Shown here one piece after another: positions 1 to 9,607 of a stretch of 9,607 nucleotides of DNA. Position numbers and translations under genes: made by a program. Numbering within the stretch: position 1 is the first letter of the stretch; each line of letters opens with the position of its first letter. The stretch is from Candidatus Helarchaeota ASGARD archaeon Hel_GB_B (GTDB taxonomy: Archaea; Asgardarchaeota; Lokiarchaeia; Helarchaeales; HEL-GB-B): contig SUPR01000117.1 in assembly GCA_005191425.1 (NCBI GenBank), forward strand, positions 1 to 9,607, read 5' to 3'. The notes beneath the pieces were generated by a model that was not told the origin of the DNA, made no database searches, and worked only from the letters and a program-made list of their open reading frames with translations.

Positions 1-102
1 TGAAGAATAAATTTTCAACAATGCTTCCGTAAGATTTCGAATATAAGTACAATTTCCGGAACCTTCAGTTTCTGCAGCGTGAAAATCAATACCTATTTTC
101 AT
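1..102 (-). CDS. Glycosyltransferase family 4 (GT-B, group 1), N-terminal 34 codons; gene continues beyond the left edge
   Basis: My translation of the reverse complement from ATG at 102-100 gives MKIGIDFHAAETEGSGNCTYIRNLTEALLKIYSS, open to base 1. This matches the typical GT4 start (MKIxID...GxGxY..xL..xL). AAAAGG lies 5 nt upstream (+ strand cctttt, 108-113). Not in the supplied ORF track; only 34 aa are visible. Confidence 0.78.
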   Translation of the reverse strand, partial: MKIGIDFHAAETEGSGNCTYIRNLTEALLKIYSS

Positions 103-522
103 TATAGCCTTTTATAGAATGTAAAAAAAATTATATTTTAAGTGGATAATATTTAAAATAATATAACATACTCTTATATAAAAAATATTGCAATGTTTCC
201 TATGCAAACCCAAGTGGATAAATAACTTGATTAATAATATTTATTGAACTATTATAACATTTAATATTTAAACCTAACCTAACAAAATAATGGTTATTAT
301 TGGGCTTATGACTTTTAATGACAATTAGTTATGTAAATTATTGTAGTGATAAAGATAAATAATAAAGATTTATCGTTTTAAAAATGATAACACTACTGTT
401 CATAAATTTCATTAAAATTATTTATGTCATGAAAATATGATGTTTTATATAAAAAAATTACTAATTTTGAGCATGTAAATCGTTCTATTTAAGTTATTTT
501 TTTAGAAAAGCATAAAAATATA
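103..522. promoter_or_regulatory. Divergent intergenic region expected to hold promoters for the GT4 gene (-) and the seven-gene cluster (+)
   Basis: 420 bp, extremely AT-rich, lying between two divergent start codons, so promoters are expected here. One candidate sigma70-like + strand element is TTGATT(227-232)-N17-TATTAT(250-255). Such matches are weak evidence in DNA this AT-rich. Confidence 0.5.
140..221. repeat. Direct repeat AAGTGGATAA (140-149 and 212-221), 72 bp apart
   Basis: Two exact 10-nt copies, each with three G in a G-poor region. The reverse complement contains TTATCCACT, one mismatch from the DnaA box TTATCCACA. The repeat is certain; its function is not. Confidence 0.4.
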
Positions 523-2073
523 ATGTTTAATATTAAAATATTTATCCAAAATAATCGTCATAAGTTACTGTTAATTATAATATTGATATTGGGTGCGTTT
601 TTACGTTTATATGATTTAGGTGCTGAAAGTCTATGGTATGATGAAGTCGCTAGTATTGACCAGGCCTTAGAAGACTTTCCTACTCTTTTTTCAGGGTTTC
701 ATATCTCACCATTATATTTTTTATTTTTAAAATATTGGATAATGTTTTTTGGAGTATCTGAATTTGCATTGCGCTTACCTTCAGCCATATTTGGTATATT
801 GTCTATAATATCCCTATATGTCATTGGATCTCAACTTTTCAACAAAAAGGTTGCTATTATAAGCAGTTTTATTTTGGCTATTTCACCTTTCCATATATTC
901 TATTCCCAGGAAACAAGGAATTATAATCTGTTTGTATTTTTAACATTGTTGTCAATGGTATATTTCGTGAGAATTATAAAAGAGAAATGCCCATCTGTTA
1001 GATTATTTATTTTGTATGTGATTACAAATATTTTCCTTTTATATTCTATGTTATTTGGACTCTTTGTTATTGTTATTCAAAACATATTTTATTTTTCACT
1101 TAATATCAAAAAGAAAAATAAATGGATTATTACACAGATATTTATTTTGCTCGTTTATTTAATTTGGTTTATACCATTTGTTATTTTCTTATTTAATGAA
1201 AAAGCTTATGTGTCTCAATGCATTGATTGGATTCCATTACCAAGTTTGTTTTCGATCGTTAAACTATTTGAGAGTTTTAGCTATAAAGGACATTGTTTCG
1301 GCGGCTGGGATTTTTTTGTTAACACTAAGGACATTGGGTTTTCATGGCTTCTTTTATACATATATGGCATTTTTTTTATTATTGGCATTGTTTTTTCGAA
1401 AAAAAACGAAATTAAATATGTCGTTTTAAGTTTATTGTGGCTTTTTATACCCATTACAGTAGTTTATTTGTTTTCTTACCTTTGTTTTCCTTTGTTTGTT
1501 ATAAGATATTTTATTTTTGCCTCACCAGCATATTACATTCTTATCGCAAAGGGGATAGAAAGAATTAATATCAGTTTATATCAAATAGCAGCAATTATTT
1601 TGATCTCTTTGTTGATATTTCCGTCAATTTATTTTTATTATACAAAAAATATGAAAATAGATTGGAAAAAAGCTATTCCATATATTGACCAGAATATGAG
1701 AGAAAATGATTTAATACTTATAACAATACCGGATAAAGTTTTGATGTTTAACTACTACGGGAAAGATGGAGCGAAATATCAGAATAAAAAGAATATAAAG
1801 ATAGATGTTAGGCGTAAACTAGGAATAGATATGCTTAGAGGAGGATATGTATGGAATTATAGAAATCATGAATTATGGGGAGCATATAACGCAAAACAAA
1901 TTAAGGAAATAATAAGTAAAAAGGGAAATAAAATTGACGGTAATTTATGGTTAATACTAGTTACCCGTTGGACACAGAATGCGAAAGAGATAACAAATTG
2001 TATAGAATCATTTTTAGAAAGAAAAAGTGAAAAGAAATATGAAGGACTAAATATTTATTATTACATCAAATAG
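523..2073 (+). CDS. GT-C fold polyprenol-phosphate-sugar-dependent glycosyltransferase (PMT_2/GT39/ArnT-like), multi-pass membrane protein
   Basis: 516 aa. Shows LRLYDLGAESLWYDE (diacidic D40-E41 after TM1), PLYFLFLKYW..FGVSEFALRLPSAIFG, SPFHIFYSQETRNY and RYFIFASPAY. About 11-13 hydrophobic segments by eye, then a soluble C-terminal domain starting DWKKAIPYIDQNMRENDLIL. Acceptor unknown. Confidence 0.85.
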   Translation: MFNIKIFIQNNRHKLLLIIILILGAFLRLYDLGAESLWYDEVASIDQALEDFPTLFSGFHISPLYFLFLKYWIMFFGVSEFALRLPSAIFGILSIISLYVIGSQLFNKKVAIISSFILAISPFHIFYSQETRNYNLFVFLTLLSMVYFVRIIKEKCPSVRLFILYVITNIFLLYSMLFGLFVIVIQNIFYFSLNIKKKNKWIITQIFILLVYLIWFIPFVIFLFNEKAYVSQCIDWIPLPSLFSIVKLFESFSYKGHCFGGWDFFVNTKDIGFSWLLLYIYGIFFIIGIVFSKKNEIKYVVLSLLWLFIPITVVYLFSYLCFPLFVIRYFIFASPAYYILIAKGIERINISLYQIAAIILISLLIFPSIYFYYTKNMKIDWKKAIPYIDQNMRENDLILITIPDKVLMFNYYGKDGAKYQNKKNIKIDVRRKLGIDMLRGGYVWNYRNHELWGAYNAKQIKEIISKKGNKIDGNLWLILVTRWTQNAKEITNCIESFLERKSEKKYEGLNIYYYIK

Positions 2074-2138
2074 TTCATAAATTTAAATAGATTAGTATAT
2101 TTGTATAGAGTAATATAAAATATAAAAAGATTAATTTT

Positions 2139-3890
2139 ATGAAAAAATTTAGTATATATCCAATTGTTATAATTTTGTTGGCGAGTATAATTTATATCGC
2201 TCCAATGTTTAGGGACATTACTTATTGGGGTGAGATGGATTGGGATCAGTTTACATTCTGGCATGCTGTTCCAAGAGAGATTATTTTACAATATCATCAA
2301 TTTCCGCTTTGGAATCCTTATACTAACGGTGGTAATGTATTATTAGCGCATACGCATTCCCCATTTTTATCACCTTTTTTTATTTTTGTTCTTATTTTCG
2401 GGCCAATAGTTGGACTAAAACTTGAGATATTTGTTCATTTGTTTATCGGCATGCTTGGCATGTACCAGCTTGCAAAATATTTAAAAATTGGTAAATATTC
2501 ATCTTATCTGCCTCCTATAGTTTATATGTTAAGTTCAATTTTTATATTACACGTTGCTGAGGGACATGTTGAATGGATTACAATGGCTTTTATCCCTTGG
2601 ATATTTCTGTTTTTTTTGAAAAGTTCTGACAATTTTAAATATATCTTTTATTGCATAATATTAATCTCAATTACGATATTTTCAGGTAGTATTGATATTG
2701 TGAGTATACTGCTTATATTATTACCGATTTACGTATTATCAGTAGCAATAAAACAAAACAATATAACGATGGTAAAAAAAGTTATTATAATTTTAGTTGG
2801 TACATTTTTAATATGTTCTATTAAGTTAATACCAATGTTAGAATTCGTGAAAGAAAACCCTCGTTTTGTAAAATATGATGAATCAACAGTAATGTTTTCA
2901 TTGTCAAGCATACTTTTATCAAGGGAACAAGATATGTTTTATCAAAGTACAAAATGGAATATACCTGAGCAAGGAGTTAAAAGTAATGCCATTGAATGTG
3001 AATATGGTTGGCATGAATATGGGGCGTATATAGGATTTGTACCATTAATTTTGGCAATTATAGGCTCTTTGTTTTATTTTAAAAAACATTGGCCATTATT
3101 TGTGACAGGTTTAGTAACTTTATGGATTAGTCTAGGAAGCGGGGCATTTTTTAACTTATGGAGTATTTTCCATAGGTTACCTTTCTATAACATGTTGCAT
3201 GTGCCTTCGCGATATATAGTCGGTTTTGTGTTTTGTTCAGCTATATTTTCAGGATTAGGTTTAACAAAGCTGGAATATGCAAGTAATAAAAAATATTATA
3301 AGTTTTTTATAATTTGCGTAATCTGTTATATATTTTGTGATTTATTTTTAGTTAATTATCCGTTATTAAAAAATACATTTACTATCAAACCTCCGGAAGT
3401 CGAGAGAGCTTTTGAATTTAGGCAAAGGCATAGGGATTTTTGCCTGTTTCCTGGGATAATTAGAAGTTCAATGTATCCTGCATTATTAAACAACAGTGGA
3501 GTAATTAATAATTATGAGGTTATAAGTGTAGAAAGGGGGGATGTTAAAACAGTATCTGATGTAGATTACAAGGGTGAGGTTTATTTTTTAAACAGCAATA
3601 ACAGGATCGAATCGTTTGACTTTAGTCCTAATATATTAAAGATAAAGGTGAATGTAAAGGAAAATGACAGATTGGTTATCAATCAGAATTACTATCGAGG
3701 TTGGAAAGGAAAAATAGGAAGTAAAAAATTAAATATTAGTCCTTTCTCGGGATTAATTTCTACAAATTTGAGCAAGGGAGAATACTTGGTAGAATTGTTT
3801 TATATGCCAAACAGTTTTATTATAGGAGCTATTTTATCCGGCATTAGTATTATTTTTGGTTTATTTTGTTATGTGCGGTGTATAAAATAA
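2139..3890 (+). CDS. YfhO-like GT-C membrane glycosyltransferase
   Basis: 583 aa multi-pass membrane protein with DWDQ after TM1, FPLWNPYTNGG..LLAH, GHVEWITMAFIPW, WHEYGAYIG and RYIVGF. A soluble domain ending LVINQNYYRGWKG...LFYMP..F..G precedes a final TM helix, as in the YfhO C-terminus. Family assignment by motif recall only. Confidence 0.75.
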   Translation: MKKFSIYPIVIILLASIIYIAPMFRDITYWGEMDWDQFTFWHAVPREIILQYHQFPLWNPYTNGGNVLLAHTHSPFLSPFFIFVLIFGPIVGLKLEIFVHLFIGMLGMYQLAKYLKIGKYSSYLPPIVYMLSSIFILHVAEGHVEWITMAFIPWIFLFFLKSSDNFKYIFYCIILISITIFSGSIDIVSILLILLPIYVLSVAIKQNNITMVKKVIIILVGTFLICSIKLIPMLEFVKENPRFVKYDESTVMFSLSSILLSREQDMFYQSTKWNIPEQGVKSNAIECEYGWHEYGAYIGFVPLILAIIGSLFYFKKHWPLFVTGLVTLWISLGSGAFFNLWSIFHRLPFYNMLHVPSRYIVGFVFCSAIFSGLGLTKLEYASNKKYYKFFIICVICYIFCDLFLVNYPLLKNTFTIKPPEVERAFEFRQRHRDFCLFPGIIRSSMYPALLNNSGVINNYEVISVERGDVKTVSDVDYKGEVYFLNSNNRIESFDFSPNILKIKVNVKENDRLVINQNYYRGWKGKIGSKKLNISPFSGLISTNLSKGEYLVELFYMPNSFIIGAILSGISIIFGLFCYVRCIK

Positions 3891-3978
3891 AAATGTAAAA
3901 GAGCAATTATAGTTTATATTTATATTAATAATTTTTTTTATTCAATATGAATCAAATAAAATGTTATGAAAGTACATT

Positions 3979-5430
3979 ATGCTTAGTGCTGTATATTCTT
4001 ATCAGATCAAAAAAGTATTATTTATAAGATTATCTTCAAATATTTTTCATAAAAATCCCCATTTGCGTAATATCAGACCACCTTTCGAGTTAGCCTATTC
4101 TATGTGTGTGTTAGAAAAAGAAGGTTTTAATACAAAATTGATAGATTGCTGGATTCATAATTTGTCAATTGAAGAGCTTGTTGAAAATATAAATGAATAT
4201 GAACCTAACATGATTGTTGTTTCATGCACGACTGATTGTTGTAATTTATGTACTGAATTTATGCGAGAGGTCAAAAGAAACAGAGAAGTTATAGTGGTTA
4301 CCGTCGGACAACATGCTTCATCCGAACCAGAAACATTTTTATATAAAGATTCGCCTATCGATCTTTGTATTGTTGGAGAAAATGATGCAGTTCTTTTAAA
4401 CCTGGTTGAACGACTTAATTCTGGAAGAGGATTAAGCGGGATGAAAGGGGTTTTAAGTATTGATGGTGGTAATAGTGATGTAAACATTGTAGAAGATTTA
4501 GAATCACTACCTATTATAAATCATAAATATTTTACGCAGGATAATGGATATATTTCATATTATCCCGTTCGTCTTAGCGAAAAAGTAAAATGGGGACATA
4601 TTCTTACAAGCAGAGGCTGTCCATATGAGTGCATTTTTTGTTCACCTGTAATGCGTGATAGTTACGGGAAAAAAGTACGTTTACGAAGTGTAAATAGTGT
4701 TATAGCCGAAATAAAAGATTTAATAAGCGATGGTGTAAACATAATTACTTTTTGTGATGATAATTTTACTACAGTAAGATCTCATGTTGAGAGTATTTGC
4801 AAAGAGATTATAAAACAGGATCTTGATATAAAATGGATAGCACATACTAGGGCAGACAATCTGGATATAAATTTGATGAAATTAATGAAAAAGGCGGGTT
4901 GTTTACTTTTGAGAATTGGTGTAGAGTCTGCTTCTGAAAGAATAATAAAAATTCTCAAAAAAACAGAATATCCAGAAGATTGGTTCAGAAATATAAAGGA
5001 AATATTTGAACAGGCTAATGCAATTAATTTACCTACAAATGCGCTTTTTATTATCGGGAGTCCGTCGGAAACGAAAGAAGATTTAAACAAATCTATAAGA
5101 ATGATACGTCAACTAAAGACTGATATTGTAATGGTACATTATTTTACCCCATATCCTGGTTCTGAATATTACCAAAAAAATAAAAATAAAATAAGGTTAG
5201 AGGACAAAGAAGGAATGTATCATTATGTTATGAGTATGAATTTTAGTTCGATTGATCCAAAAGAGTTGAAAAAAATGTTGCGTAAACTTTATTGTCAATA
5301 TTATCTTAGGTTTTCTTTCTTGATTAAACATTTTCGGAATTATTTAGGGTTCTATATGTTTAATCCTCATATTTTTAAAATGATTTTAATAATGTTTTTT
5401 AGAATGTTGAGTCCTAGGAAAGTGTTTTGA
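3979..5430 (+). CDS. Cobalamin (B12)-binding radical SAM enzyme (class B methyltransferase / BchE-HpnJ-like superfamily), paralog 1
   Basis: 483 aa. N-terminal B12-binding Rossmann motifs: PPFELAY..VLEKEGF..KLID, VGQHAS.EPE and DLCIVGE. Radical SAM motif TSRGCPYECIFC (C214/C218/C221, nt 4618-4641), followed by FCDDNF, RAD, IGVESAS, FIIGSPSET and FTPYPGS. Confidence 0.92.
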   Translation: MLSAVYSYQIKKVLFIRLSSNIFHKNPHLRNIRPPFELAYSMCVLEKEGFNTKLIDCWIHNLSIEELVENINEYEPNMIVVSCTTDCCNLCTEFMREVKRNREVIVVTVGQHASSEPETFLYKDSPIDLCIVGENDAVLLNLVERLNSGRGLSGMKGVLSIDGGNSDVNIVEDLESLPIINHKYFTQDNGYISYYPVRLSEKVKWGHILTSRGCPYECIFCSPVMRDSYGKKVRLRSVNSVIAEIKDLISDGVNIITFCDDNFTTVRSHVESICKEIIKQDLDIKWIAHTRADNLDINLMKLMKKAGCLLLRIGVESASERIIKILKKTEYPEDWFRNIKEIFEQANAINLPTNALFIIGSPSETKEDLNKSIRMIRQLKTDIVMVHYFTPYPGSEYYQKNKNKIRLEDKEGMYHYVMSMNFSSIDPKELKKMLRKLYCQYYLRFSFLIKHFRNYLGFYMFNPHIFKMILIMFFRMLSPRKVF

Positions 5431-5433
5431 TGT

Positions 5434-6672
5434 ATGAAATTTAAATTAATTCCAAGACAAAAATCCAATTGTACAATACGTGACATATTAGATATTTTAA
5501 GTTTATTTTTAAAAGGTAAACTTAGGAGGGGCTCATATATAAAAGAATTTGAGGAATTAATTTCAAAATTTCACTCGCAAAGATATGCTTTGGCAACAGG
5601 GTCTTGCAGGTTAGCTTTTTATTTAATATTAAAAGCATTAAATATATATAAAAATGATGAAGTAATAATCCCAGCTTATAATATGTCTGCTTTCCCTAAG
5701 GTGTTGAAACTAAATGGTATTAAGCCAAAATTTGTTGATATAGATGAATGGACGTTGAATATAGATGTTAATAAAATTGAAAAGAATATAAATGAAAGAA
5801 CAAGAGCAATCGTTGCTGTTCATTTATTTGGAAATCCTTGTGATATGGATGGTATTATGAATATAGCCAGAAAATATAGTTTGCCTGTTATAGAGGACTG
5901 TGCAAATTCGATAGGAGGTAAATATAAAGGAAAACTTCTAGGAACTTTTGGTGATGCAGTTTGTTTCAGTTTCGGACATTCAAAAGATATTTCAACATTA
6001 GGTGGAGGGATGGTTTTAACAAATGATGAAAAATTATATATGAAGATCAAGGAATTATATGATGATGAATTTGTATTGCCGGATATGTTTGAAATTACAA
6101 AAATAATTATAAAAAATATTATTTTAAAACTTGCAACTGCTAGGATTATATTTTGTTTATTTGTCTATCCATTTATCATGTTTGCTAATTTTGTGAATAG
6201 TAATATATTAAATAATATATTCGAAGAAAAGGATGAATTAAGTAAAATGGTTAAAAAACGATATGCTAATTTCCAGGCCAGAATAGGTATAAATCATTTT
6301 GAGGCCATGAATAGACTACAGAATAAACGAATAGCTAATGCGCAAACTTATAATAAATTATTAGTAGATATTAAAGGGATTAGGATTCCTAAGAGTGTTG
6401 AAGGAGCTGAGCATGTATACTGGCAATATCCAATTTGGGTTCGGGATAGAGAAAAAATAATAAAGAAGCTTCTAAAAAAGGGGATTGATACAAAAAAAAT
6501 ATATACGTATGATTGCAATAACTACATAATATTCAAAAAATTTAGCAGCCATTGTCCAATATCTGAACAGACATCAGAAAAAATATTATGTTTGCCCGTT
6601 TATCATTATTTAAAAGAGAAGGACATAGTGTTTATTAGTGAATTGTTAAAATATTACTATTGTTATAAATGA
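5434..6672 (+). CDS. DegT/DnrJ/EryC1/StrS family PLP-dependent (sugar) aminotransferase with an atypical hydrophobic insert
   Basis: 412 aa with DEVIIPAY, PKFVDID..TLNID, RAIVAVHLFGNPCDM, VIEDCA (PLP-binding Asp), FSFGHSK (Schiff-base Lys184, nt 5983-5985), GGGMVLTND, R..NA..Y..LL, HVYWQY and CPISE..SE.ILCLP. Starts 3 nt after the upstream stop. Confidence 0.92.
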   Translation: MKFKLIPRQKSNCTIRDILDILSLFLKGKLRRGSYIKEFEELISKFHSQRYALATGSCRLAFYLILKALNIYKNDEVIIPAYNMSAFPKVLKLNGIKPKFVDIDEWTLNIDVNKIEKNINERTRAIVAVHLFGNPCDMDGIMNIARKYSLPVIEDCANSIGGKYKGKLLGTFGDAVCFSFGHSKDISTLGGGMVLTNDEKLYMKIKELYDDEFVLPDMFEITKIIIKNIILKLATARIIFCLFVYPFIMFANFVNSNILNNIFEEKDELSKMVKKRYANFQARIGINHFEAMNRLQNKRIANAQTYNKLLVDIKGIRIPKSVEGAEHVYWQYPIWVRDREKIIKKLLKKGIDTKKIYTYDCNNYIIFKKFSSHCPISEQTSEKILCLPVYHYLKEKDIVFISELLKYYYCYK

Positions 6673-7964
6673 AAATATTGCTGATCAAACCATATTGGTC
6701 CTATCCATACAGCAGAGGAGAATATACTTACAATCGAATATGGCCTCCATTATGCTTGGCTAATTGTGCTGCTATATTAGAAAAAGAAGGTTTTGATGTT
6801 AAGATTTTGGATGCTCATGCTGAACGAATACAACCTGAGAAAATAGCTCGTTATATTTGTGGTTACGACAAGATATTTATTACTTCATCTTCCCTGGATA
6901 GATGGCAGTGCCCTAACATTGATATAAAAACTTTTTTAGAAACAGTTAAATATTGCAAAGAGAAAAATGATGAAGTCTTTATATCAGGTTACCATGGAAC
7001 GGTTGAACCAGAGCGAATATTAGGATTAACTGGGGCAAAAGCAGTAATAATAGGTGAACCTGAGTGCACGATTTTAGATATTTGCCGTAACAATAATTTA
7101 TCGAAAATACAGGGTGTATTTTTTAAAGATGACGGGCAAATAGTGTCAAATCCAAAAAGAGAGCCGTTAGATTTTAAAAAAATACCTATACCGGCATACC
7201 ATTTGTTAGATTTTAAAAAGTATTTTTATGAAATACTTGGTGGCAGATTTTCGCTGTTTGAAATAAGCAGAGGTTGCCATTATAAATGTACATTTTGTAA
7301 TAAAATTATGTATGGAGGAGGAGTTCGGTCAAAGTCATCTAAGCAAATAATAGAAGAAGTAACTATAGCCATAGAAAAATATAAGATAAAGACAGGATTT
7401 TTTATGGATTTGGATTTTTTATCAAATAGGATCATTGTAGAAGAATTATGTGATTATCTTATTAAGAAAAAATATAGATTTAAGTGGTCTTGCCAAACGA
7501 GGCCTGATTTTTTAGATATGGAAATTTTAAGAAAACTGAAAAATGCTGGATGCGAAATATTACATATGGGTATAGAAAGTGGAAGCCAGAATTCATTAAA
7601 AGAATTTAATAAAAATATGAATATTAAGACTATATTTAACGCATTTAGAATGTGTAATGTTGTAGGAATTAAAATATTGTCTTTTTTTCTATTTGGTTTA
7701 TCTGATGAAACAAATCAGGATAGAGAGGATACATTAAATTTAGTAAAGAAGTTAAACCCTGATTTTGTCTCATTTCATAAGGTTTATCCTTATAAAGGTT
7801 CTGTTATTTCGCAAGATAATATTTCGAAAAATTCGGCTGCGGATAGATTTATCCGTAAGGCATTTATTAAATTTTATTTGAGATTTTCTTATGTATCAAA
7901 ATTAAATCCATATATCATTTTATGTGGACCAAGACTGTTATGGGGGCGTATTAAAACGTTGTAA
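6669..7964 (+). CDS. Cobalamin (B12)-binding radical SAM enzyme, paralog 2
   Basis: 431 aa with WPPLCLA..AAILEKEGFDVKILDA, SGYHGTVEPE, IIGEPE and PIPAYHLLD. Radical SAM motif SRGCHYKCTFC (C203/C207/C210, nt 7275-7298), followed by TRPD, GIESGSQ and FGLSDET. The start overlaps the aminotransferase stop (ATGA, 6669-6672). Confidence 0.92.
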   Translation: MKILLIKPYWSYPYSRGEYTYNRIWPPLCLANCAAILEKEGFDVKILDAHAERIQPEKIARYICGYDKIFITSSSLDRWQCPNIDIKTFLETVKYCKEKNDEVFISGYHGTVEPERILGLTGAKAVIIGEPECTILDICRNNNLSKIQGVFFKDDGQIVSNPKREPLDFKKIPIPAYHLLDFKKYFYEILGGRFSLFEISRGCHYKCTFCNKIMYGGGVRSKSSKQIIEEVTIAIEKYKIKTGFFMDLDFLSNRIIVEELCDYLIKKKYRFKWSCQTRPDFLDMEILRKLKNAGCEILHMGIESGSQNSLKEFNKNMNIKTIFNAFRMCNVVGIKILSFFLFGLSDETNQDREDTLNLVKKLNPDFVSFHKVYPYKGSVISQDNISKNSAADRFIRKAFIKFYLRFSYVSKLNPYIILCGPRLLWGRIKTL

Positions 7965-7967
7965 TAT

Positions 7968-8666
7968 ATGAATAATGAATATTCAATTTCTTTGATTTTG
8001 CCTATGCATAATGAAGGAAAAAATATTGAAAAAATATTTAATGAATCCGTTGAATATTTAAGTCAAAATAGAAAAATAAAAGCTTTTGAGGTAGTCATTG
8101 TTGATGATGGCAGCACTGATAATAGTGCTGAAACAATAAATAAATTAGGCATTAAAAATCCTTTTCTGAAAGTAGTAAGGCATCCTAAAAATATGGGATT
8201 TGGAAAAGCAATTATGTCAGGATATCGAAATTCTAAGTACAACCTTAACTGCTTTATGGATGCGGACGGGCAGTTTAAAATTGATTCGATTGAAGAAATG
8301 CTTGAGTATATTGAAGATAATGATATTGTAATGGGATATCGCTTAAGAAGAAAAGATTCTTTATATAGGATTATGTTGGGTAAGTTTTATGCATTTATTG
8401 CAATGATCTTATTTGGATTGAAATATAAGGATATTAATTGTGGATTTAAGCTATTTAGAAAGGATGTATTATGTAAATATTATCACTGTAATGCCGGTAT
8501 TTTTTATACTGAAATTTTATTAAATGCTCAAAAGAAAAAACTCCGGATAAAAGAAATCCCGGTAAGTCACTACCCTAGATTAAATGGCAATCAAACCGGC
8601 GGTAGTCTAAAAATAGTGTTACACTCGATTAAAGATATCGTTAAATTATTGTTTCGTAAGAATTAA
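7968..8666 (+). CDS. GT2 polyprenol-phosphate glycosyltransferase (DPM1/ArnC/GtrB-like)
   Basis: 232 aa with LPMHNE, VDDGSTDN, HPKNMGFGKA, MDADGQF (DxD), DIVMGYR, DINCGFKLF, EIL and EIPVSHYPR. This motif series is typical of dolichol/undecaprenol-phosphate sugar synthases. No C-terminal TM pair. Confidence 0.9.
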   Translation: MNNEYSISLILPMHNEGKNIEKIFNESVEYLSQNRKIKAFEVVIVDDGSTDNSAETINKLGIKNPFLKVVRHPKNMGFGKAIMSGYRNSKYNLNCFMDADGQFKIDSIEEMLEYIEDNDIVMGYRLRRKDSLYRIMLGKFYAFIAMILFGLKYKDINCGFKLFRKDVLCKYYHCNAGIFYTEILLNAQKKKLRIKEIPVSHYPRLNGNQTGGSLKIVLHSIKDIVKLLFRKN

Positions 8667-8693
8667 GTTAAATAAAACTTTTAAATCATTACC

Positions 8694-8699
8694 TAAGGA
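8694..8699 (+). promoter_or_regulatory. Shine-Dalgarno-like site for the 8708 gene
   Basis: TAAGGA lies 8 nt upstream of ATG 8708. Confidence 0.35.
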
Positions 8700-8707
8700 T
8701 ATAAATT

Positions 8708-9607
8708 ATGATTTCGATTAATGATTTATATAGAAAACTTAAACGTCAATATATCAATTTGTATCTTGTTAATGCTGCTCCGTTGCTTTATTACCTTATG
8801 CATATACCTTTTTTCAGCTTTTATTATTTTTTTGGAAAAGGGAAAGCTAGTTTTCCATTAAACATTACTTTAGATTTGACTTATGAATGTAATTTAAGAT
8901 GTAAGTATTGTTTTCTACATTTTCTAGGTCCTACTAATGCTATTCAGGATGAACCATGCCTAACATTCAAAGAAATAGAACGATTTGTGACTTCATTGAA
9001 AGGAAGGCATACATCATTTCTTCTTACAGGTGGGGAGGCAACATTACGTAAGGATTTAATAGAAATTGTAAAATTAATAAAAACCAATAAATTTAGATGT
9101 GGTTTATTTACAAACGCTGTTACTCTTTTACCCTCAATTTCAGATGATTTAATAAAGTATGGACTAGACTATTTATTTTTCTCACTAGACGGCCCTCGGG
9201 ATATTCATGACCAATTAAGAGGCGTGGGCACTTTTGATATAATATGCAATAATATTTGGCATATCTCAAAAAGAATAAAGCACCATAGACCAAGAATTAT
9301 AATGAATACCTTAATACTTGAAGAGAATTATACCAGGTTAAAAGAAATCATTGATGTTGCACATGATTTAAATATAGATGGCGTGGCATTTAATTTTATG
9401 AATTATTTAACTAAAAGAGAGTTTGATATACATAAAAAATATTTTAGTGAAAAATTTATTTCAGATATATTTAGAAGTTTTGTATGTGTGAATGATTTTA
9501 ATAATAAAGGGTTTAAAAAAATGCCATCTATTTTAAAAACATTAATATATTATTCTAAAATGAAAAAAGTACCCATATTTTTTAAGCCATCTTTAAACGA
9601 TAATGAA
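8708..9607 (+). CDS. Radical SAM enzyme without a B12 domain (MoaA/PqqE/BtrN-like, possibly SPASM/twitch); 3'-truncated by the window edge
   Basis: My translation: 300 open codons, MISINDLYRKLKRQYINLYLVNAAPLLYYLMHIPFFSFYYFFGKGKASFPLNITLDLTYECNLRCKYCF...LTGGEATLRKDL...FTNA...FSLDGPRDIHDQLRGVGTF...NTLI...KPSLNDNE. CxxxCxxC is C61/C65/C68 (nt 8888-8911). GGE and SLDG...HD..RG motifs are present. Not in the supplied ORF track. Confidence 0.9.
   Translation, partial: MISINDLYRKLKRQYINLYLVNAAPLLYYLMHIPFFSFYYFFGKGKASFPLNITLDLTYECNLRCKYCFLHFLGPTNAIQDEPCLTFKEIERFVTSLKGRHTSFLLTGGEATLRKDLIEIVKLIKTNKFRCGLFTNAVTLLPSISDDLIKYGLDYLFFSLDGPRDIHDQLRGVGTFDIICNNIWHISKRIKHHRPRIIMNTLILEENYTRLKEIIDVAHDLNIDGVAFNFMNYLTKREFDIHKKYFSEKFISDIFRSFVCVNDFNNKGFKKMPSILKTLIYYSKMKKVPIFFKPSLNDNE

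Follow-up and report, generated by a model that had tools for sequence, protein, structure and literature searches.

A radical SAM-rich gene cluster on a contig assigned to an Asgard archaeon: a candidate module for lipid-carrier envelope glycosylation

Contig SUPR01000117.1 of assembly GCA_005191425.1, the metagenome-assembled genome (MAG) of the Asgard archaeon Candidatus Helarchaeota Hel_GB_B, places genes of the kind used in envelope glycosylation next to three genes for radical S-adenosylmethionine (SAM) enzymes. This raises the question whether these genes form one system and, if so, whether that system corresponds to a known one. The stretch analysed here, called the window in the following, is the entire contig (C22; 9,607 bp; host MAG of 3.54 Mb with 28% guanine plus cytosine [GC]). 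We propose, with a probability of roughly 0.6, that it encodes one module for lipid-carrier ("three-component"-type) envelope glycosylation, in which the donor sugar is tailored by a membrane-associated DegT-family aminotransferase and three radical SAM enzymes instead of the usual nucleotide-sugar enzymes that depend on nicotinamide adenine dinucleotide (NAD). Known envelope amino sugars are, to our knowledge, synthesised at the nucleotide-sugar level by such NAD-dependent enzymes, and radical SAM sugar chemistry with an assigned function is confined to antibiotic pathways and two lipid head-group cases (HpnJ and the calditol synthase Cds). If the proposal is true, it would provide functions for a sizeable block of unassigned B12-type radical SAM proteins and predict unusual surface sugars in uncultured anaerobes such as Omnitrophota and others.

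Gene content, recurrence and natural fusions of the cluster

The window contains seven open reading frames (ORFs) on the + strand, all co-directional and separated by gaps of 65, 88, 3, -4, 3 and 41 nt, with genes 3 to 6 tightly packed (3, -4 and 3 nt). Genes 1 (523..2073, 516 aa; Pfam PMT_2, E=4e-12) and 2 (2139..3890, 583 aa; Pfam GT-C_AftD, 32.9 bits against a cut-off of 26) encode membrane glycosyltransferases of the C fold (GT-C), the first of the PMT_2/ArnT type and the second resembling YfhO, AftD and PTPS_related proteins. Genes 3 (3979..5430, 483 aa) and 5 (6669..7964, 431 aa) encode two radical SAM proteins, termed rSAM-A and rSAM-B, both with Pfam B12-binding and Radical_SAM domains. 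Between them lies gene 4 (5434..6672, 412 aa; Pfam DegT_DnrJ_EryC1, E=5.5e-78), encoding a DegT-family aminotransferase dependent on pyridoxal phosphate (PLP). Gene 6 (7968..8666, 232 aa; Pfam Glycos_transf_2, E=4e-29) encodes a short family 2 glycosyltransferase (GT2) without a transmembrane (TM) segment, and gene 7 (8708..9607; Pfam Radical_SAM), open at its 3' end, a radical SAM protein of probable SPASM type. An original prediction for this locus, made from the sequence, had described seven co-oriented genes with these positions and gaps, and our ORF listing reproduced them exactly. The gene families named there agree with the Pfam and NCBIfam assignments, gene 7 being refined to a probable SPASM type by means of its full-length orthologues.

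The closest homologues of rSAM-A (40-52% identity) are found in metagenomes and in MAGs of Omnitrophota, Elusimicrobia and Wallbacteria. We read the gene context in eleven loci, the window included. In nine of them (the window, L015 in genome G401, L016, the contig of protein P0014, L099, L100, L109, L110 and L111), rSAM-A or an A-like copy with 33% identity directly adjoins a DegT gene carrying the insertion described below. rSAM-A is the signature gene of the module. Its neighbours in the related loci are short GT2s, GT-Cs of the PMT_2, YfhO and DUF2079 types, small SPASM/twitch radical SAM proteins and further B12-type radical SAM proteins. Frequent additions are an ArnD-type deacetylase, AsnB-type amidotransferases, carbamoyl-, acetyl- and methyltransferases, and an LPG_synthase_TM protein. 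In L100, a 51% identical rSAM-B lies directly upstream of rSAM-A, giving the order B-A-DegT, and the GT2 is 41% identical to that of the window. All seven families are found on contig C57 of G401 in one co-directional array of 25 kb, where the gene 7 orthologue adjoins a GT2 as in the window. Homologues of gene 1 (30-33% identity) occur in the syntenic loci L016, L100 and L101, orthologues of gene 2 (41% identity) in L109 and L111, and homologues of gene 6 (37-41% identity) adjoin the module in L100 and G401. Conservation across distant taxa, which the original prediction had named as support for a discrete system, was thus observed: these gene families were encountered again beside orthologues at separate loci.

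We then compared this neighbourhood with a background. Among 57 loci of at least 12 kb each around more distant B12-type radical SAM relatives in species-representative genomes, short GT2s were present in 14, PMT_2 proteins in 7 and DegT proteins in 9. The corresponding counts for 20-kb windows of the host MAG were 2, 0 and 2 of 94. Therefore, this radical SAM clade is associated with glycosylation genes clearly more often than the background would give, though not in all cases.

Natural gene fusions join the same partners. A single 752-aa ORF on contig C57 of G401 (L128, 7055-9313) combines B12-binding, Radical_SAM and Glycos_transf_2 domains in the order of genes 5 and 6, and a 710-aa protein consisting of GT2 and radical SAM parts is encoded beside an rSAM-A orthologue. 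Protein P0143 fuses a GT2 to an insertion-type DegT, and P0279 a gene 2-type GT-C to a PMT_2 GT-C. In P0271 (1024 aa; L122, 1369-4443), a gene 2-type GT-C carries an insertion-type DegT at its C-terminus; this protein is encoded on a metagenome contig of 64% GC, with a short GT2 gene 14 nt downstream. Because gene 2 ends in a TM helix that follows an outer beta-sandwich, a fusion of this kind would put the PLP domain on the cytoplasmic face. The fusions name partner proteins and thereby make the system testable. A further gene 2-type GT-C, P0248, is joined to HEAT repeats.

The original prediction had stated that no characterised pathway with this gene set was known. In agreement with this, two 2026 reviews, one on B12-radical SAM enzymes and one on radical SAM enzymes that modify lipids, did not contain a characterised member of the module, and none was found in full-text searches of the literature. 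Taken together, the module is discrete, conserved and apparently uncharacterised.

Properties of the individual enzymes

The DegT protein encoded by gene 4 belongs to an orthogroup with 17 members in our alignment A2, which are 30-57% identical over their full length and were aligned alongside canonical DegTs. The Schiff-base lysine (Lys184) expected of a fold type I PLP enzyme is invariant in this alignment. The structural model (pLDDT 94.3) matches perosamine synthase, ArnB, WbpE, WecE and QdtB in Foldseek searches, with E=5e-35 to a sugar transaminase of A. veneficus and to perosamine synthase. All 17 members share an insertion of ~50 residues at the junction of the PLP and C-terminal domains, which is absent from the canonical DegTs in A2 and has no counterpart among the top 50 solved homologues. 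These are shorter, canonical sugar aminotransferases of 357-402 aa, except for KabA with 438 aa, and the target-normalised TM-score exceeds the query-normalised one for all matches but KabA. According to the alignment and the model, the insertion of the window protein is a hydrophobic helical hairpin covering aa 218-263 (6085..6222, + strand) with helices at 218-234, 237-253 and 258-263. The second helix is strongly hydrophobic and contains a conserved aromatic-Pro pair, and hydropathy peaks at 224-254. Since this conserved hydrophobic hairpin is not seen in solved DegTs, we read the enzyme as working at the membrane: the insertion suggests a membrane-association element and an enzyme that possibly acts on a carrier-linked sugar. 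In G401, two overlapping ORFs (194 and 239-248 aa; L015, 2963-4238) take the place of an intact orthologue, owing to a frameshift, an error in sequencing or decay of the gene.

Both B12-type radical SAM proteins combine a CxxxCxxC motif with an N-terminal B12-binding domain, as is characteristic of class B radical SAM enzymes. rSAM-A has an N-terminal Rossmann domain of the B12-binding type and the cluster motif CPYECIFC, rSAM-B a domain of the same type and the motif CHYKCTFC. Their PF02310 scores are 53.2 and 43.6 bits, respectively, against a cut-off of 32.1. The best NCBIfam matches of rSAM-A are HpnJ (165 bits, 164.8 before rounding) and BchE (161 bits), far under their cut-offs, and rSAM-B reaches 150.4 bits against HpnJ (TIGR03471), for which the cut-off is 577.6. 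Assignment of the two proteins to HpnJ, BchE, AprD4 or any methylase family was therefore rejected, all curated cut-offs having been missed. Hopanoid genes were not found in any related locus read. The nearest solved structure to both proteins is that of the diol dehydratase AprD4. Cobalamin use and C-methylation or ring contraction by rSAM-A and rSAM-B are no more than possible. The host MAG contains eight matches to rSAM-A at E<=1e-30. Three more of its B12-type radical SAM genes (L115; G000:C126:1-9000) have as neighbours genes for a ferredoxin-nitroreductase fusion and an adenylating enzyme of the GH3 family rather than glycosylation genes.

The third radical SAM protein, encoded by gene 7, has a hydrophobic N-terminal segment and the motif CNLRCKYC. 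Because the contig is the whole window, this gene is truncated: the contig breaks off after 300 of its ~379 codons, and the gene cluster may extend beyond this point. The window copy ends before the auxiliary Fe-S cysteine motif and reaches no curated family. Its orthologues (46-63% identical, 376-387 aa) all carry both the Radical_SAM and the PF13186 SPASM domain. One of them, P0398 (51% identical), is encoded on a 3.36-Mb contig, apparently a closed genome. The missing C-terminus was not found on the other MAG contigs, where contig-end overlaps were likewise absent, and a metagenome scan with gene 7 returned two distant loci only and did not recover the downstream part. In structural comparisons, the SPASM/twitch proteins align at near full length with SkfB, CteB, PqqE and anSME and more weakly with the sugar-acting BlsE, DesII and BtrN. 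The latter three are detectable as relatives of the small radical SAM family A3, which occurs in the related clusters and is 22-27% identical to gene 7, but were not among the matches listed in the PDB search with gene 7 itself.

Genes 1 and 2 both encode GT-C-fold proteins whose first outer loop contains an acidic motif. The sequence profile of gene 1 indicates about 10 TM segments, a Y-D-E motif after TM1 and a soluble C-terminal domain. The gene 2 protein is, as modelled by AlphaFold (pLDDT 94, pTM 0.94), a GT-C fold with a beta-sandwich and then a terminal TM helix at the C-terminus. The top 28 Foldseek matches of this model in the PDB are all GT-C enzymes, with modest TM-scores of 0.4-0.5. 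Among the enzymes matched are PglB, STT3, AftD, ALG12, ArnT, AglB, AftA, Pmt4 and DPY19. Its first-loop motif D34-W35-D36 (G..D-W-D) is nearly invariant in the family alignment (A4). The family is large and full-length, with 764 representatives at E<=1e-30 among 1.84 billion representatives searched, and the language-model look-alikes of gene 2 are bacterial YfhO, PTPS_related and PMT_2 clusters.

Gene 6 encodes a GT2 of the predicted polyprenyl-phosphate sugar synthase type. Its best NCBIfam matches are ArnC, PgfS, PpgS, Dol-P hexose transferase and AglJ, every one of them below its cut-off. The suggestion that a GT2 and GT-C proteins cooperate on a prenyl carrier, which was part of the original prediction, fits these family assignments.

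A proposed order of reactions and its alternatives

How could these enzymes work together? What we infer here are the substrates, the sequence of the steps and all chemical activities; the families, their co-occurrence, the fusions and the DegT insertion are the observations behind it. [quoted passage not shown] A radical SAM enzyme would then convert a sugar hydroxyl to a ketone; the candidates are the SPASM enzyme, as a dehydrogenase like BtrN, and rSAM-A, as a dehydratase like AprD4. The DegT protein, held at the membrane by its hairpin, would convert the ketone to an amine, and the remaining B12-type radical SAM protein or proteins would C-methylate or rearrange the sugar. A flippase encoded outside the window would move the carrier-linked sugar across the membrane, where both GT-Cs would transfer it to envelope acceptors.

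This scheme has to account for the keto sugar that a transaminase requires. In the DNA seen of the seven DegT-bearing clusters (the window, L016, L099, L100, L109/L111, L110 and G401 C57), no sugar oxidoreductase of the SDR or GFO type was listed. Since these clusters lack an NAD-dependent sugar oxidoreductase, it is probably a radical SAM enzyme that makes the keto sugar. Precedents for radical SAM enzymes in sugar chemistry are BtrN/BtrS, GenD2-GenS2-GenD1, AprD4/AprD3 and DesI/DesII, and AprD4 dehydrates a sugar diol to a keto sugar. The idea that radical SAM chemistry takes the place of ArnA and ArnD had been put forward in the original prediction; it fits both this absence and the fusions of radical SAM and DegT proteins to GT2 and GT-C. 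Chemistry on a lipid-bound sugar has a precedent in HpnI, HpnK and HpnJ (PMC13459092).

We go one step further only tentatively, in proposing that the amino-sugar tailoring follows loading onto polyprenyl or dolichyl phosphate. In that case a DegT anchored by a re-entrant hairpin and the radical SAM proteins would oxidise, aminate and methylate or rearrange a carrier-linked sugar without NAD or oxygen, by a route widespread in uncultured anaerobes and here perhaps acquired by an Asgard archaeon from bacteria. The opposite order, in which all tailoring occurs on the soluble nucleotide sugar and the GT2 loads the finished amino sugar, as ArnB precedes ArnC in the Arn pathway, seems unlikely to us. 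It is true that solved DegT homologues without exception act on nucleotide sugars or an inosose, that the DegT of the window has a canonical core in which Lys184 is retained, and that no full TM segment is predicted in any of the radical SAM proteins. But only this DegT subtype has the conserved hydrophobic hairpin; it moreover occurs fused to a polytopic GT-C and to GT2s, and a B12-type radical SAM protein is fused to a GT2. Action at the membrane accounts more readily for the hairpin and the fusions, which are nevertheless compatible with soluble substrates. That the radical SAM enzymes merely lie beside glycosylation genes and act on something else is very improbable. Their substrates would then be isoprenoid lipid tails, as for the B12-type enzymes that modify glycerol dialkyl glycerol tetraethers, or a peptide or protein acceptor, as for SPASM maturases. 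B12-type radical SAM proteins are indeed prominent among archaeal lipid modifiers, and in structure the SPASM/twitch enzymes are most closely related to the peptide maturases SkfB, CteB and PqqE. However, rSAM-A consistently adjoins a sugar aminotransferase with which it is translationally coupled, a fusion of a B12-type radical SAM protein with a GT2 exists, and orthologous clusters are found in bacteria lacking archaeal lipids. Moreover, no ORF resembling a precursor peptide was called in the clusters, although no search was aimed at one.

Several observations weigh against the proposed module of carrier loading and radical SAM tailoring. The cluster is cut at both contig ends, and L017 and L101 contain rSAM-A without a DegT gene in the stretch seen. 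No flippase is encoded in the window, and PF03706 was not found in the host MAG, which is 93.7% complete; in L109 and L111, a flippase-like PF03706/LPG_synthase_TM protein adjoins the GT2. The hairpin might serve as a lid or in protein-protein contacts instead of anchoring the enzyme in the membrane. All curated family cut-offs were missed widely. Finally, the Pfam domain is the sole indication of cobalamin binding; the PF02310 match is weak, faint or absent in several orthologues, and AprD4, the closest solved relative, has a related domain but binds no cobalamin according to a 2026 review of B12-radical SAM enzymes, which lists no glycan or polysaccharide function for them (PMC12931638).

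Relation to known systems and origin of the contig

The cluster resembles several characterised systems. Like the Arn system (PmrHFIJKLM), which forms 4-amino-4-deoxy-L-arabinose (L-Ara4N), the window joins in one operon an aminotransferase of the DegT fold, a GT2 predicted to be a polyprenyl-phosphate sugar synthase and a PMT_2-type GT-C, and its relatives also carry an ArnD-type Polysacc_deac_1 deacetylase. In contrast, ArnA, ArnD and ArnE/F are missing among the seven products of the window, within the bounds set by the contig ends. Gene 4 scores 146.1 bits against the ArnB equivalog NF008658 (cut-off 631) and gene 6 scores 71 bits against ArnC (cut-off 529), whereas the three radical SAM proteins, the second GT-C and the hydrophobic DegT insertion are additional to the Arn set. 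In three-component glycosylation systems (GtrA/GtrB/GtrC, CsbB/GtcA/YfhO and PpgS/Rv3632/Rv3779), a cytoplasmic GT2 makes a polyprenyl-phosphate-linked monosaccharide that is used by a GT-C outside the membrane (PMC11127046). The GT2 of the window has the size of PpgS (232 aa) and gene 2 is YfhO-like, but the window lacks a small flippase of the GtrA/GtcA type and has two GT-Cs, an aminotransferase and radical SAM proteins, the latter two being absent from the known systems. The module is thus related in logic to Arn and to the three-component Gtr/YfhO systems and is a member of neither. The interpretation in the original prediction is supported in part: the module is discrete and recurrent and does not map one-to-one onto Arn or Gtr/YfhO, equivalog cut-offs being missed and ArnA, ArnE/F and GtrA absent, whereas cobalamin dependence and C-methylation or ring contraction are only possible.

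Further similarities concern the radical SAM enzymes. HpnJ, the mechanism of which is itself unproven, is the top curated family for both B12-type proteins of the window, although at 165 and 150 bits against 577.6. In the HpnI/HpnK/HpnJ series, a GT2, then a deacetylase and then a B12-type radical SAM enzyme act on a lipid-anchored sugar, which provides a precedent at the level of the carrier (PMC13459092). The window contains no hopanoid genes and adds GT-C exporters and a DegT protein. In the same 2026 review of lipid-modifying radical SAM enzymes, HpnJ and the calditol synthase Cds are the only cases with lipid-anchored sugars, and no polyprenyl- or dolichol-linked substrate is mentioned (PMC13459092). 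BtrN/BtrS, GenD2-GenS2-GenN-GenD1, AprD4/AprD3 and DesI/DesII share with the window the pairing of a radical SAM redox enzyme or dehydratase with a DegT-family aminotransferase. In aminoglycoside pathways, C-methylation by B12-type radical SAM enzymes also occurs on the same sugar on which the aminotransferase acts. These aminoglycoside and DesI/DesII pathways belong to soluble secondary metabolism without a polyprenyl-phosphate GT2 or a GT-C, and their relation to the window is at the superfamily level only.

The host MAG encodes a TATA-binding protein (TBP) and is archaeal. If the contig is truly archaeal as well, it would represent an interdomain transfer of envelope-glycan chemistry into an Asgard lineage. 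There is an even chance, in our estimate, that it is instead a mis-binned fragment of a low-GC anaerobic bacterium, in the envelope of which the genes would serve the same function. Neither rSAM-A, at E<=1e-75, nor the insertion-type DegT was found in 399 other Asgard genomes, the same genus included, and for gene 2 a single weak match emerged in 40 relatives. TBP is absent from the genomes that contain the three closest genome-assigned clusters, one of which belongs to Omnitrophota. In tetranucleotide use, the contig is the fourth most deviant of 47 contigs of 7-13 kb and thus a mild outlier, and the estimated contamination of the MAG is 4.9%. In addition, a 3.5-kb MAG contig (G000:C91:1564-1773) carries a gene with sigma-70 region 2 in a frame of 185 aa, which is either bacterial contamination or a transferred gene. 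On the other hand, the GC content of the contig (28.1%) equals the MAG mean, and glycan islands are commonly compositional outliers. Homologues of gene 1 (32-46% identical) are present in two Asgard relatives, and the DegT protein occurs in identical form on a second contig (30,594 bp) that is attributed to the same genome or a very close one. A paralogous cluster, located on a 1.4-Mb contig of an Asgard genome from the same order (L114; G005:C5:601000-620900), comprises four B12-type radical SAM proteins together with a 227-aa GT2, a 698-aa PMT_2 GT-C and a class I methyltransferase, but no DegT. Therefore, radical SAM-rich GT2/GT-C clusters also exist in securely archaeal DNA.

Sequence signals did not separate the two origins. 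No Shine-Dalgarno (SD)-like motif was found upstream of any of the seven genes. Homologous loci of low-GC bacteria are as close to the mean of the MAG as C22 is, and tetranucleotide use, GC content and SD-motif counts do not discriminate the origin of the contig. Mis-binning and gene transfer are about equally likely.

Some minor features remain to be described. Gene 1 is preceded by an AT-rich divergent intergenic region of 420 bp (103..522), presumably the promoter region, although sigma-70-like promoter sites and terminator-like sites were at the level of shuffled sequences. On its other side lies the 5' end of a partial divergent gene (1..102, - strand), counted here as a neighbour of the module. 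Its 34-aa N-terminus resembles a GT4-type glycosyltransferase by eye and had no match among 20 relatives. In L017 (8684-9994) and L101 (7234-8577), a flavoprotein with Amino_oxidase/NAD_binding_8 domains is encoded directly or one gene upstream of rSAM-A. Ten proteins of 467-697 aa recur between the radical SAM genes of related clusters (L016, L017, L015, L100, L101 and L109) and have no Pfam family above cut-off, except for one marginal C-terminal TPR_19 match (25.4 against 25 bits). In L017, such large family-less proteins alternate with B12-type radical SAM genes. These large proteins may represent additional membrane transferases that have escaped recognition.

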